A DNA stretch of 25,488 nucleotides from Stx2-converting phage Stx2a 981509: the sequence record LC487996. One strand, given 5' to 3'. Position numbers: made by a program. Positions 9,001 through 15,000 of the stretch are shown piece after piece; the stretch's first letter is position 1, and each line of letters begins with the position of its first letter.

Positions 9001-12000
9001 GCTTTTTGTTTCAGGAATCCAAGAGCTTTCACTGCTTCGGCCTGTGTCAGTTCTGACGATGCGCGAATGTCGCGGCGAAATATCTGGGAACAGAGCGGCA
9101 ATAAGTCGTCATCCCATGTTTTATCCAGGGCGATCAGCAGAGTGTTAATCTCCTGCATGGTTTCATCGTTAACCGGAGTGATGTCGCGTTCTGGCTGACG
9201 TTCTGCAGTGTATGCAGTATTTTCGACAATGCGCTCGGCTTCATCATTGTCATAGATACCAGCAAATCCGAAGGCCAGACGGGCACACTGAATCATGGCT
9301 TTATGCCGTAACATCCGTTTGGGATGCGACTGCCACGGCCCGGTGATTTCTCTGCCTTCGCGGGTTTTGAATGGTTCGCGGCGGCATTCATCCATCCATT
9401 CGGTAACGCAGATCGGATGATTACGGTCCTTGCGGTAAATCCGGCATGTACAGGATTCATTGTCCTGCTCAAAGTCCATGCCATCAAACTGCTGGTTTTC
9501 ATTGATGATACGGGACCAGCCATCAACGCCCACCACCGGAACGATGCCGTTCTGCTTGTCAGGGAAGGCGTAAATTTCTTTCGTCCACGGATTAAGGCCG
9601 TACTGGTTGGCGACGATCAACAATGCGATGAACTGCGCATCGCTGGCATCGCCTTTAAATGCCGTCTGGCGAAGAGTGGTGATCAGTTCCTGTGGGTCGA
9701 CAGAATCCATGCCGACACGTTCAGCCAGCTTCCCAGCCAGCGTTGCGAGTGCTGTACTCATCCGTTTTATACCTCTGAATCAATATCAACCTGATGGTGA
9801 GCAATGGTTTCAACCATGTACCGGATGTGTTCTGCCATGCGCTCCTGAAACTCAACATCGTCATCAAACGCACGGGTAATGGCTTTTTTGCTGGCCCCGT
9901 GGCGTTGCAAATGATCGATGCATAGCGATTCAAACAGGTGCTGGGGCAGGCCTTTTTCCATGTCGTCTGCCAGTTCTGCCTCTTTCTCTTCACGGGCGAT
10001 CTGCTGGTAGTGACGCGCCCAGCTCTGAGCCTCAAGACGATCCTGAATGTAATAAGCGTTCATGGCTGAACTCCTGAAAATGGCTGTGAAAATATCGCCC
10101 GCGAAATGCCAGGCTGATTAGGAAAACAGGAAATGGGGTTAGTGAATGCTTTTGCTTGATCTCAGTTTCAGCATTAATATCCATTTTTTATAAGCGTCGA
10201 CAGCTTCACGAAACATCTTTTCATCGCCAATAAAAGTGGCGATAGTGAATTTAGTCTGGATAGCCATAAGTGTTTGATCCATTCTTTGGGACTCCTGGCT
10301 GATTAGGTATGTCGATAAGGCGTTTCCATCCGTCACGTAATTTACGGGTGATTCGTTCAAGTAAAGATTCGGAAGGGCAGCCAGCAACAGGCCACCCTGC
10401 AATGGCATATTGCATGGTGTGCTCCTTATTTATACATAACGAAAAACGCCTCGAGTGAAGCGTTATTGGTATGCGGTAAAGCCGCACTCAGGCGGCCTTG
10501 ATAGTCATATCATCTGAATCAAATATTCCTGATGTATCGATATCGGTAATTCTTATTCCTTCGCTACCATCCATTGAAGGCCATCCTTCCTGACCATTTC
10601 CATCATTCCAGTCGAACTCACACACAACACCATATGCATTTAAGTCGCTTGAAATTGCTATAAGCAGAGCATGTTGCGCCAGCATGATTAATACAGCATT
10701 TAATACAGAGCCGTGTTTATTGAGTCGGTATTCAGAGTCTGACCAGAAATTATTAATCTGGTGAAGTTTTTCCTCTGTCATTACGTCATGGTCGATTTCA
10801 ATTTCTATTGATGCTTTCCAGTCGTAATCAATGATGTATTTTTTGATGTTTGACATCTGTTCATATCCTCACAGATAAAAAATCGCCCTCACATTGGAGG
10901 GCAAAGAAGATTTCCAATAATCAGAACAAGTCGGCTCCTGTTTAGTTACGAGCGACATTGCTCCGTGTATTCACTCGTTGGAATGAATACACAGTGCTTA
11001 TTCGTACTAATAAAATACCCAATTTTCTGTTTCTTGGTTGTGTCCAAAGTTATATTCAATATCTGGTGTTGATGTATCAATATTCTTCATACCATCAACA
11101 AGAGTTGATACAACAGCCAAATCTTGTTTGATTCTCATTAAATGGTATTTCTTCCGGCGCAATAAACTTTCAATGGCAAGTTTCTTCGTTGGGAATGCAA
11201 AAGATCTTTCTGCATTTTTTGCTACTTTCTTAATTGCATATCTATTTCTCCTTTGTTTCCATTCCTGTAACCACTGATTTGGTGCTGGTTTAAAATTAAC
11301 AATCCAATGCGCAGGAACCAACCATGCATAATGCTCTGTCTGATGAAAAGCTATATATTGAAGTGCGAATATTTTTATCCCATCTTCTTCAACTGTCGCC
11401 TGGAATCTCCAGAAAACAGGCATTCCATCATGTTCAGTTTCTGATTCAGGAAAAGGTACGCTCCATGATTTTGTCATATCTCACCTCAAATAAGTGGTTT
11501 GCTGCCTAATTTCATTTTCTGGCGACCAACACAAGTCATCTTGCTGTCAGTTGTTTGGATTTACGGTAGCCTGCCGCGTAAAGAGCTACATTTGGAAGAC
11601 AAGTTGAGCCTTCATATTTTCTGGTCAACGTTGTCAGTGTTATTACTTCTGCTCTCATTGCTGGTTTGCGTTTGCATTGTAAGACCACTCGTGATGGGGT
11701 TGGCCTGTGTAGTTTGTCGGAGCTAATCGCCTCCTGACTTTGCAGGTTTGCGCGACGAGCTCTACGGCGAGAAGCTGCGGTGCCTTTAAATTCTGTTTTT
11801 CTGGACATAGATTCCTCCCGAATAAACTTTGGCGATGCAATCTCGAAGCTCCTCCTGAGACGGTTGCTTCGGCATTGCATCCCACAGCTTATGTGGTTGG
11901 GTGATCTGGCTTTTCAGCCACGTAGTCGAGAGTCGACGTTGTTTAAAGAGCCTGCCAGTCTGTTCCATTTGGCTTCCAGCGTCCTGCTGATGGTTAAATA

Positions 12001-15000
12001 GTACGATATGTACTTAACTTGGTCAATACAATTTGTTCTAAAATGGGGCGTTTTTTTACAACGCTTTGTATTTAATAGTATTGTTTTTTAGCGTGGGTGT
12101 ATTGCCTCGGCGATGTAAGGAGAGATCAGAATTGCGTTGTTTAGTGAGTTGTATCTATTTATTTTCCAATAAATACAATTGGTTATGTGTTTTTTTGGGC
12201 GAGAGGAAAAGAAAACCCGGCATGGAGGCCGGGTTGATGATTAGCGGTGTGGCCTTGAGCGATAATGCTCACACACATGTTCAAGATTTCCATGCCTTAT
12301 CCGTTCATAGGCATTCACATGAACTTCTCGATCGAATTGGTCATTCAAATTGTATGTAGACATCTGTGTTTTCTCATATTGGCGGCAGCCCTACAACCGC
12401 TTGAAAAAATGTACCAGACGCGCTAAGGTTACATCGCAAATATTGTGTACCTTAACAAGGGCTCCTTTTGGAGGCTCTGGTTAAACAGCATCAATGTCGG
12501 ACTGGGGAGTTGGACATTGTGCTGAATGCTTTTGCATTATTGAGGCCGAACGTAAACCTTCAGAATTGAAGAGATGCGTTCGGCTTCTTCGTTTGTGATA
12601 TCGTTAGGAATGCCTTTAATCGTTACTGTAACCCCTGATTCAGGTCGAAGAACTACTGGAAGATCATAGGTATGAAGTGCATTAGCCTTGCCTTCGACTT
12701 TTGTTGGTTCGCCAGTCAAATCTTTTTCCTCACTGGATTCTTTGTCAATCGGAGTGTATGGGATTTCTTCACCAGACTGGAAAGCTACAAACTTTTTGAT
12801 TGCACTTTCCATGCGGCTTTTATATGCAGTAATGCTGCTGTCGCTAGGCTTCGGCTCAGTTGCGTTGATGTATCGCTCGGCAAGCTCATTCACATCAAGC
12901 TGAGTAACATCACCCATTTCCTCTTCTTGGACTACCGTTAAGAGGCGAGCGGATGAGTTTTTTAAATTTCGAGCGGTGGCCTCCTTCATTATGTTCAGCG
13001 ACATAAGCTCTTCAAGGAAGTCCTTGAATGCCTGCACGCTAACGTTTGACTTTGCCATTTGCTCTCTCTCTAAGTTATTGACTCAGATCGAGTTTATCCA
13101 GGAATTGATTTGCATGCAAGACTCAAGTCTTGAGAATTTCCGTTCAAGATCCACTCTCAATAAAAAAGGCCGCACCTCTGCGACCTTTCATCTCCTAAAT
13201 CTCTTTTCTCTTACCTAAAGAAACAGCAGGCTGGGTCAGCCCTAACAACTTCAAGTGCATCGGTCAGAGAAAGCTCCGTGCTATACAGGTGTTATTTCAT
13301 ATCTTTTTGCATCCAATAAATTTTCCATCTGTCCAGAGAGCGGATGCACTTGATTCTTGTTGATGGCAGGACGTTTTTTCACCTGCCTCACCCTGCCATA
13401 CAGGACGCTGCTCACCGATATCTATCGTCCGGTCATTGATGTTATAGACAATATCCAGATCATTACGGATATACTCAGATGGCCTTATGCTTTCAATGAA
13501 TAGATGAACTTCTTTTTGACCGCTTGATACTCATGGCCATTAAACTCCATCTATCCTCTTTACCCAAACGTCTCTTCAGGCCATTGGCTGGCGATAACTT
13601 TCCCCACAACGGAACAACTCTCATTGCATGGGATCATTGGATATTGCGGGTTTAGTGGTTGTAGAAACACCTGACCGCTATCCCTGATCAGTTTCTTGAA
13701 GGTAAATTCATCACCACCAAGTCTGGCTATGCAGAAATCGCCGGGCTCAACAGCTTGCTCAGGGTCAACCAGAATTAACATCCCGTCAGGAAAACTAGGT
13801 TTGGAACCTGTTGGTGCGGTCATTGAGTTACCTTCAACCTCAAGCCAGAATGCAGAGTCACTGGCTTTTTTGGTTGTGCTTACCAATCTCTCCGCATCAC
13901 CTTTGGTAAAGGTTCTGAGTTCTGGAGAGAACATCCCAGCCTGAACATGAGAAAAAACAGGGTACTCATATTGTTTTTTAACTGGGGCCGATGAGTATTC
14001 GCCAACAGGTGAAAATGTCCCGTCGTGGTTGAATGATATGTTATCAATACCAAGGTATTTAAACACCACACCAATATCACTAAGAGATGGATGACGAGAT
14101 CCGCGCAACCAGTGTCCAATTCCACCCTGCGTCATACCTAGCTCTTCGGCTAACTTCTCTTGAGTTATGCCGAGCTCTTTCATTCTGGATCTAGCCAGTT
14201 CATACCATTTCATTTTCATGTCCTTATTATTACGCTCTGTACTGGAACCATCCATGCACAATGTGTATTTTTACTTGTATTTGAGAAGTACATATTGTAT
14301 TTTTTTATTCGTGGTTACTATGGAGGGCATATGAGCAACCTACGAAAATATCGAGAGTCACTGAATATCTCTCAAACAACACTTGCTAAGGCAGTTGGAT
14401 GCACACAGGGAGCTATCGGACATTGGGAATCTGGTCGTCGCTTCCCAGACCTTAAAACATGCCGTGCTCTTGTTGCGTGTCTAAACAAGTTAGGCGCAAA
14501 AGTAAGTCTTGATGACGTGTTCCCGCCGGAGCACAAAGCCGCTTAATAAGCGGAGCCGCTCTTTGTAACAACGGACATTCGTCCTACGTCGCTGAAAAGC
14601 GAGTCCCAAGATATCTGACCAACTAAGGCCATATGCGTTTCCACGCATACCTTTCAACTAACTATTCACTATTGGAAATCTTAAGAAATGGAACGAACAA
14701 GTTACAGCAAACTATCCCAGCGTGACGTTGATCGCGCAGAAACAGATTTACTCATCAACCTGTCAACGCTTACCCAGCGCGGTCTGGCAAAGATGATTGG
14801 CTGTCATGAATCGAAGATAAGCAGAACGGACTGGAGGTTTATTGCTTCGGTCCTGTGTGCTTTCGGAATGGCATCAGACATCAGTCCGATTAGCAGGGCT
14901 TTTAAGTATGCGCTTGATGGACTCACCAATAAAAAACGCCCGGTGTGCAAGACCGAGCGTTCTGATCAAATACAAATGGAATTTTAACAACATCCAACGA

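Follow-up and report, generated by a model that had tools for sequence, protein, structure and literature searches.

Probable nutL and nutR sites with GAAA-tetraloop boxB hairpins in the early region of Stx2-converting phage Stx2a 981509

The early region of the Stx2-converting phage Stx2a 981509 (sequence record LC487996) carries the genes N, cI, cro and cII together with the operator regions OL and OR, in an order taken from open reading frames (ORFs), Pfam matches and public annotations (Table 1). The window referred to below is the whole stretch analysed, 25,488 nucleotides (nt) long. A sequence-only reading had proposed a matched pair of N-utilisation (nut) sites, nutL and nutR, each made of a boxA and a boxB hairpin, and both motif pairs are present at the places it gave, within 11907-14602. 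The whole nutL span is at 11907-11951 on the minus strand, after the promoter pL and before N, and the whole nutR span is at 14558-14602 on the plus strand, after cro and before cII. We consider it very probable that these are the nutL and nutR of the phage. nutL lies about 40 nt 3' of a pL-like promoter and 98 nt 5' of N, and nutR starts 11 nt past the stop codon of cro and lies 86 nt before cII. This is the lambdoid placement, with nutL between pL and N and nutR between cro and cII/tR1.

At each site a boxA-like element (CGCUCUU(U)A) is found 5' of boxB, CGCUCUUUG in nutR and GGCUCUUUA in nutL. The nutL boxA is almost identical to UGCUCUUUAACAA, which we take to be the rrn-type boxA consensus. 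Both strands of the window were scanned for the composite pattern GCTCTTT-N{15,35}-GCTGAAAAGC, with 100 dinucleotide-preserving shuffles as the control. Exactly two copies were found in the 25.5 kb, at 11909-11951 (-) and 14558-14600 (+), both of the form GCTCTTT-N26-GCTGAAAAGC, and the pattern occurred in 0/100 shuffles (expected number 0). The distance between boxA and boxB, which had been described as similar at the two sites, is in fact identical, since both copies are 43 nt long. Without mismatch, GCTGAAAAGC occurs in the window only at 11909-11918 (-) and 14591-14600 (+).

When folded in isolation, the boxB sequences form a 5-bp stem with a 4-nt GAAA loop (-6.5 and -7.1 kcal/mol, z about -3.5; equalled by 2-3 of 200 shuffles), which agrees with the proposal that the loop is shorter than the 5-nt loop of lambda. 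Both hairpins have a U-A loop-closing pair and a GNRA loop, and the loop is a true tetraloop and not a pentaloop mimic. Folding also revealed a second hairpin in the spacer of each site, unnoticed in the sequence-only reading and lying between ACAAC (5') and UACG (3'). Dyad symmetry in the spacer, a feature of H-19B/HK97-type sites, is thus found at both nutL and nutR. The spacer hairpin of nutR has the same sequence as that of H-19B nutR, and from this hairpin to the cII ATG 116/119 positions are the same as in H-19B nutR/tR1. Among the three differences, one removes a C from the boxB loop and changes UCGCU-GACAA-AGCGA to UCGCU-GAAA-AGCGA. The nutR/tR1 region of H-19B has been characterised experimentally: nutR contains two hairpins, NusA and Rho footprint on the spacer, N footprints on the boxB loop, and the terminator tR1 overlaps nutR (PMC3526286). 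Judged from sequence, the architecture of the window sites is the two-hairpin layout of H-19B nutR rather than that of lambda. The spacer between boxA and boxB in lambda is short and unstructured.

Relatives of the two sites were collected from annotated phages (POCJ13, 75/02 Stx, g341c, HK97, SPN9CC, H-19B and HK620), from GTDB genomes (among them Citrobacter, Kluyvera and E. albertii; 11 loci came from the species scan) and from IMG/VR. Searching IMG/VR with the N protein gave only relatives at least 98% identical. Because the protein and GTDB searches yielded few distant loci, two DNA-pattern scans of IMG/VR were added; the pattern biases the boxB core, and the counts from these scans given below are among the matches listed. 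At 80 IMG/VR loci with N at least 98% identical, variation in nutL was confined to the loop of the spacer hairpin (CUC, ACAC, ACUC, AUC and GCAC). Among the listed pattern matches, the spacer hairpin was present in 308/315 with paired outer boxB positions and in 2/28 with unpaired ones.

An alignment of 27 distinct tetraloop sites from these relatives, given to RNAalifold as the only input, folded into exactly the spacer hairpin and boxB, with no pairing of boxA. In this structure, 97% of the cells are paired and compensatory changes are seen in 6/10 pairs, including 4/5 pairs of the spacer hairpin. The covariation score is 0.617, compared with 0.132 for column shuffles (0/500 as high) and at most 0.105 when the partners were slid. 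The two outer boxB pairs are U-A, C-G or A-U and G-C, C-G or A-U, respectively, and the outer two pairs of the nutL boxB read UG/CA, CG/CG, AG/CU or CA/UG across the relatives. The spacer stems include GGAC/GUCC, GGCC/GGCC, GUCGA/UCGAC, GGUGA/UCACC, GAUUC/GAAUC and GAAGA/UCUUC. G-U pairs also occur in related sites (GATTCG/TGAATC spacer stems and the SPN9CC nutR stem UCGCU/GGCGA), and these fit symmetry at the RNA level rather than at the DNA level.

The gene that follows nutL encodes a protein of 90 amino acids starting with MSRKTEF. It matches the Pfam family PF25694 (N_peptide) over residues 1-90 with 111 bits, far above the cut-off of 27.9, which supports the earlier call of this gene as N. 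Its C-terminus is common to the N proteins of H-19B, HK97, P22 and HK620, and its arginine-rich motif (ARM) contains SRRRARRA. In H-19B N, the mutations R3H, S11F, R15C/P and R18P abolish nutR-dependent antitermination (PMC3526286); the window N has kept R3, R15 and R18 and has alanine at position 11 instead of S11. A sequence search of the PDB with the window N matched no solved structure.

The type of ARM follows the length of the boxB loop. Among the matches listed, GAAA loops in nutL are accompanied by 27 distinct ARMs at 142 sites and GCAA loops by 2 ARMs at 10 sites, and all 29 of these tetraloop-linked ARMs read RRRx[RHQ]R[AS]x[LV]Q. The pentaloop nutL sites comprise GACAA with 7 ARMs at 41 sites and GGCAA with 1 ARM. 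All 8 pentaloop-linked ARMs read RRRx[RL]LK[AV][KQ]A, and LK[AV][KQ]A is found in 0/29 of the tetraloop-linked ones. The ARM of the window N, RRRARRANLQ, fits the tetraloop signature. The same loop length is also found at both sites of a phage. A detector that accepted any G...A loop of 4-7 nt (143 distinct intervening sequences with more than 80 spacings, hence many different immunity regions) gave 112 nutL/nutR pairs of the 4/4 type, 31 of the 5/5 type and no mixed pair (n=143). GAAA and GCAA, both GNRA, are the only tetraloops seen among the matches listed. Where GCAA occurs, it is usually present at both sites of the phage; the exception is POCJ13 and 75/02, with GCAA in nutL and GAAA in nutR.

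Two ARMs are the same up to RRRER; one (...GSSAARRRERLKAQAI) goes with a GACAA loop and the other (...GSSAARRRERRAHLQS) with a GCAA loop. Since these twin ARMs differ only past RRRER, the residues that discriminate are expected directly behind the arginine block. The loop cytosine that the P22 boxB extrudes makes contact with the peptide (PMC12550061), and it is reasonable to suppose that the ARM segment after the arginine block handles the extra loop base. A His-to-Arg change in the ARM was considered as the loop discriminator and rejected, since H-19B has Arg and P22-type N has His, yet both go with GACAA. Two annotated phages show further loop variants. At the place of the nutL boxB in SPN9CC (about 150 nt 5' of N, which is at 4001-4384), the sequence is GCUC-C-GUCAA-C-GAGC, either a GUCAA pentaloop with a C-C closing mismatch or a 7-nt loop on a 4-bp stem. 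The ARM of SPN9CC N is of the pentaloop class, and the nutR boxB of this phage, UCGCU-GACAA-GGCGA, contains a U-G pair; the nutL variant escapes the pattern scans. The annotated nutL and nutR of HK620 (3877-3918 and 5547-5592) read UCCCGC-CGAAAU-GCGGGA, in which a C/U mismatch encloses a GAAA core, and HK620 N has a third type of ARM, NARNRRRARRQAQREQ.

A comparison with the nut sites of H-19B/933W-type phages had been proposed as a check. For H-19B (Neely and Friedman 1998, 2000; Sen laboratory, PMC3526286), the outcome is divided: it matches the window in architecture and in nutR/tR1 sequence but differs in the class of loop and ARM. H-19B and HK97 share with the window the order boxA, ACAAY, spacer hairpin, UACG and 5-bp boxB, as well as the C-terminus of N (...CLPNVALYAAGYRKSKQLTAR), and H-19B further shares the boxB stem of nutR. 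However, the boxB loop of H-19B and HK97 is GACAA at both sites, whereas that of the window is GAAA at both, and their ARM is RRRERLKAKA (the RSRRRERLKAKA type), whereas that of the window is ASRRRARRANLQ. Their N proteins have 127 amino acids, and the 90-residue N of the window is without about 37 central residues. Both boxA elements of the window are canonical, in contrast to H-19B, whose nutR carries CGCUAUUUU and whose nutL shows no clear boxA. Reportedly, work by Neely and Friedman in 2000 found H-19B N to be independent of NusB, S10 and boxA.

g341c and epsilon34 belong, like the window, to the tetraloop class, with a GNRA tetraloop at both sites and the corresponding ARM signature. The nutR boxB of g341c is the same 14-mer as in the window, UCGCUGAAAAGCGA, which the GenBank record labels 'Putative NutR (similar to NutR Epsilon34)', and its nutL boxB is CGGCU-GAAA-AGCCG. 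The ARMs of g341c (FNGSAAGRRRERRAALQN) and the window (FKGTAASRRRARRANLQS) have the same signature. In contrast, g341c N has 120 amino acids with an HK97-like central region and is 39% identical overall to the window N, its nutL and nutR are without a canonical boxA, and its host is Salmonella. A 'novel BoxB specificity' was predicted from the N terminus of the epsilon34 protein in the genome paper of that phage (Villafane et al. 2008, PMC2629481). By the sequence of the RNA-binding motif, the closest relatives of the window N are the epsilon34/g341c-type N proteins and not those of H-19B and HK97. POCJ13 and 75/02 Stx, which are Shigella phages with N 85.6% identical to that of the window, have the same 90-residue N, nut architecture and canonical boxA, but their nutL loop is GCAA (still GNRA) rather than GAAA and the immunity region between the two sites differs.

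P22 gp24 shares the Pfam family and the C-terminal motif with the window N. The P22 boxB, GCGCU-GACAA-AGCGC (NMR structure 1A4T), has the same top of the stem (GCU...AGC) and U-A closing pair as the window boxB. Its loop takes the GNRA fold with the third base (C) extruded (PMC12550061), and this extra base is absent from the window boxB. Neither a spacer hairpin nor UACG was found in the single P22-type nutL examined (E. albertii locus L096). Lambda resembles the window in having nutL before N and nutR after cro, boxA followed by boxB, a 5-bp stem, a U-A closing pair and the GNRA fold (boxB GCCCU-GAAAA/GAAGA-AGGGC; PMC12027372; PMC8632103). However, lambda has a GNRNA pentaloop that extrudes its fourth base, and the window loop is a true tetraloop. 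The boxB elements that have been studied structurally are pentaloops or a hexaloop mimicking the GNRA fold (PMC12550061; PMC12027372). We found no natural GNRA-tetraloop boxB described or tested in the searchable literature, outside of which lie some key subscription papers. Legault and colleagues are said to have described in 1998 the binding of an N peptide to a GAAA-loop variant of boxB. Nothing relevant on Nil2, 933W or Stx-phage nut sites turned up in the literature searched.

In lambda and H-19B, N docks on boxB through its ARM, NusA touches both N and the RNA, the linear boxA is bound by NusB-NusE, and the whole assembly travels along with RNA polymerase (PMC8632103; PMC3526286). The phage studied here would work in the same way. 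Upon derepression of pL and pR, each early transcript would carry boxA, the spacer hairpin, UACG and boxB in this order. The arginine-rich N terminus of the 90-residue N, encoded just 3' of nutL, would bind boxB, NusA would assemble on N and the spacer, and NusB-NusE would bind the linear boxA. The RNA-protein complex would then ride with the elongating polymerase, allowing it to resist tR1, which overlaps nutR, and downstream intrinsic terminators in both operons. The two terminator-like hairpins found in the pL operon 3' of N (Table 1) are candidate targets of such N-dependent read-through.

Several points weigh against this reading. We found no experiment on this N/nut pair, and binding, Nus dependence and read-through rest on homology. 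The comparative sets are not independent, as many of the sequences are related by descent, and this kinship means that the perfect association of ARM and loop overstates the number of independent events. The inner three boxB pairs (GCU/AGC) were fixed by the search pattern and are uninformative, the outer two were filtered on pairing, and six hairpin-less matches were taken out by eye. boxA is missing in many members of the family, such as the nutL of g341c, which makes the role of boxA in the window uncertain. Moreover, the outcome of the folding check that had been proposed depends on context, with the isolated boxB hairpins folding as described and the 66-nt sequences not. In 66 nt, the equilibrium minimum free energy (MFE) fold of both sites pairs boxA GCUCUUU with AAAAGC in the 3' half of boxB, enclosing the spacer hairpin. 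This alternative has -17.2 kcal/mol against -11.7 for the two-hairpin fold in nutR and -14.2 against -12.0 in nutL, and at both sites the boxB closing pair forms with a probability of about 0.05. nutL folded from the predicted transcription start retains the pairing. It arises because the canonical boxA resembles the 5' half of the GCUGAAA boxB.

These folds raise the question of whether the nut sites double as a structural switch, in which boxB, paired with boxA, would be open to N only co-transcriptionally or after NusB-NusE have captured boxA, thereby tuning antitermination. In addition to the folds, each site has one and the same base (G in nutL, C in nutR) in front of GCU in boxA and at position 2 of the boxB stem, which extends the alternative helix to 4 + 3 bp, and the title of an H-19B paper (Neely and Friedman 2000), as it appears in the reference list of PMC3526286, mentions 'alternative NUT RNA structures'. 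However, the sites of H-19B, HK97, g341c and POCJ13 fold as two hairpins with a probability above 0.9, RNAalifold paired boxA in none of its structure for the 27 aligned sites, and the z-scores of the 66-nt folds are unremarkable (-1.2 and -1.3). nutR folded over 126 nt retains both hairpins and leaves boxA free, and the G in the nutL boxA belongs to a leader module common to phages with unrelated boxB. Local hairpins are normally the first to form in transcription, and the binding of N and NusB/E would favour the two-hairpin form. We thus consider such a switch improbable. Pairing of boxA with boxB as the main functional structure was rejected, since it depends on context and is not conserved in the relatives or in the RNAalifold structure; it is treated as a caveat and a low-probability regulatory hypothesis and not as a refutation of the nut sites. 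The cro stop codon lies within the palindrome CCGCUUAAUAAGCGG (14539-14553, +), whose end is 3 nt from the nutR boxA. This palindrome forms its own hairpin in the 126-nt fold, where boxA is left single-stranded.

It is very unlikely that the nutR hairpins are chiefly parts of tR1, where Rho loads, or elements for RNA stability or processing, and not targets of N. In H-19B, the Rho-binding site does overlap nutR (PMC3526286), and the window is nearly identical there. However, a role in tR1 is compatible with nut function, as both coexist in H-19B, while nutL has the same architecture with no overlapping Rho terminator described. A terminator-only role also leaves unexplained why ARM and loop follow each other and why nutL and nutR match. 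A slightly smaller chance still is given to N-independent antitermination by boxA alone, as in rrn operons, with boxB dispensable. Both boxA copies are close to the rrn consensus, and that of nutL, GCUCUUUAAACAA, nearly equals it. In rrn operons, boxA is sufficient by itself and boxB can largely be dispensed with (PMC8632103). Against this, many relatives without a recognisable boxA (g341c, the Kluyvera nutL) retain both hairpins and N, boxB is far better conserved than boxA in the alignment of 27 sites, and the N gene is present with the nutL segment in 759-818 of 5426 complete E. coli genomes. That both matches arose as palindromes by chance, or are sites where protein binds the DNA, has next to no probability, and the comparative data already refute it. 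By itself, GCTCTTT is not enriched (7 found in the window against 4.4 expected), but the composite has an expected number of zero, the covariation is strand-specific and includes G-U pairs, and the position relative to N and cro is constant in every lineage examined. The reading of the two elements as nutL and nutR is therefore preferred.

Nut sites are expected biology for a lambdoid phage, in a lineage that has been sequenced many times; the modestly interesting part is the specificity class of tetraloop and ARM and its one-base relation to the H-19B nutR, a site studied by experiment. The window N would read a tetraloop without an extruded base, and we infer a specificity class separate from that of H-19B, HK97 and P22. 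The chances are even, in our judgement, that the tetraloop sites and the RRRx[RHQ]R[AS]x[LV]Q ARM represent a further natural mode of N-boxB recognition, beside that of lambda, which has the fourth base out, that of P22/H-19B, with the third out, and the hexaloop of phi21. This mode would use an unmodified GNRA loop with no extruded base and would be insulated from the GACAA class. A switch of class would take a 1-nt insertion or deletion in the loop and a few residues after RRRxR, with the window and H-19B nutR sites and the twin ARMs as natural intermediates, and the canonical boxA may also compete for the 3' strand of boxB in this lineage. The one-base loop change, linked to a short ARM segment and in step at two sites across mosaic DNA, is a natural experiment in RNA-peptide recognition. 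It offers a testable case of specificity evolution, for which the H-19B reporter system is already established. The sites also fix the early regulatory map of a very common immunity/N module of Stx phages. N-dependent read-through from pR feeds the expression of Q, and Q drives the production of Shiga toxin.

Table 1. Features of the nut sites and the surrounding early region (window coordinates; SD, Shine-Dalgarno sequence)
Feature	Position	Strand	Basis or remark
nutL boxA GGCUCUUUAAACAAC (GGCTCTTTAAAC at 11941-11952)	11938-11952	-	core GCUCUUU at 11945-11951
nutL spacer hairpin GUCGA-CUC-UCGAC, then linker UACG (11921-11924)	11925-11937	-	folding
nutL boxB UGGCU-GAAA-AGCCA, 5-bp stem, GNRA tetraloop, U-A closing pair	11907-11920	-	
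nutR boxA CGCUCUUUGUAACAAC (CGCTCTTTG at 14557-14565)	14557-14572	+	
nutR spacer hairpin GGAC-AUUC-GUCC, then linker UACG (14585-14588)	14573-14584	+	folding
nutR boxB UCGCU-GAAA-AGCGA	14589-14602	+	
Region homologous to the H-19B Rho-dependent terminator tR1, ending at the cII start codon	14603-14687	+	116/119 identity
N gene, 90 amino acids, MSRKTEFKGTAASRRRARRANLQS...	11536-11808	-	Pfam PF25694; SD GGAGG in front
Long hairpin of the N leader, past boxB and before the ribosome-binding site of N; contains ATG 11880	11822-11892	-	folding
Intrinsic-terminator-like hairpins in the pL operon, 3' of N	10883-10904 and 10445-10464	-	terminator scan
OL/pL	~11996-12040		part of local gene order
pL-like promoter: -35 TTGACC (12026-12021), 17-nt spacer, -10 TACTAT (ends 11998)	11998-12026	-	consensus scan
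cI, HTH_3 and Peptidase_S24 domains	13560-14213	-	Pfam
OR	14262-14320		part of local gene order
cro, 71 amino acids, HTH_3, first gene of the pR transcript	14331-14546	+	Pfam; Nil2 and Stx2 II annotations agree
cII, Phage_CII family	14688-14987	+	start codon at 14688

From 11400 to 15000, the window shares 99.5-99.7% identity, over 96% of this stretch, with the Stx-converting lambdoid phages Stx2a_WGPS8, 2851, 1717, YYZ-2008, Stx2 II and the PA series, and the N-nutL segment of Nil2 is identical to that of the window. None of the three public records checked for this lineage annotates a nut site. In RefSeq E. coli genomes, N is labelled 'hypothetical protein' and the nut sites are unannotated. 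The pL-like promoter overlaps the OL operators; an operator-like 20-nt sequence (11996-12015) has a counterpart in OR at 14286-14305, with 85% complementarity, and putative operators are annotated at the equivalent place in the Stx2 II record.

The leader of nutL (11938-11990, -) looks mosaic. Its pL-proximal part, including boxA, is about 94% identical to that of HK620 (3920-3960), mEp235 and many other phages, where it is annotated as nutL/boxA. Phages that share this part and have unrelated types of boxB and N include HK620, mEp235, mEpX2 and several Stx2a phages. The spacer hairpin, boxB and the N ARM form a module separate from it, and this mosaic identity suggests a recombination joint near ACAAC.

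Downstream of boxB, the 107-nt leader of N folds with -39.5 kcal/mol (z -3.55; 0/200 shuffles as stable), and its long hairpin calls to mind the RNase III site that precedes N in lambda. Leaders of the H-19B/HK97/g341c type seem to have pairable sequence at the same place (ggggtg...caccaccaaag). The Nil2 and Stx2 II records start N at 11880, giving 114 codons. This start was rejected, since the ATG is inside the leader hairpin, all homologues start with M[ST/A]R[RK]T and the GGAGG SD precedes 11808. N thus most likely starts at 11808, and the annotated gene is probably 24 codons too long (11809-11880, -).

Between cI and OL there is an ORF of 173 amino acids without a Pfam match (12537-13058, -). 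It sits at the place of rexAB in lambda and may be a moron expressed from the prophage. A strong intrinsic terminator follows it at 12214-12235 (-), just upstream of pL, and is read as the end of the cI operon. A scan of the whole window with Rfam at the gathering thresholds matched no nut or boxB family, only unrelated elements: the lambda cIII thermoregulator at 10370-10428 (-), C4 antisense RNA with its a1b1 target and isrK at 20718-20915 (+), three tRNAs at 24108-24354 (+) and two copies of sRNA-Xcc1 at 3666-3751 and 4202-4291 (-). Further downstream, at 16229-18622 (+), lies a replicative helicase of 797 amino acids whose DnaB_C domain is split around LAGLIDADG/homing-endonuclease domains (residues about 393-454), and the protein appears to be a DnaB carrying an intein.

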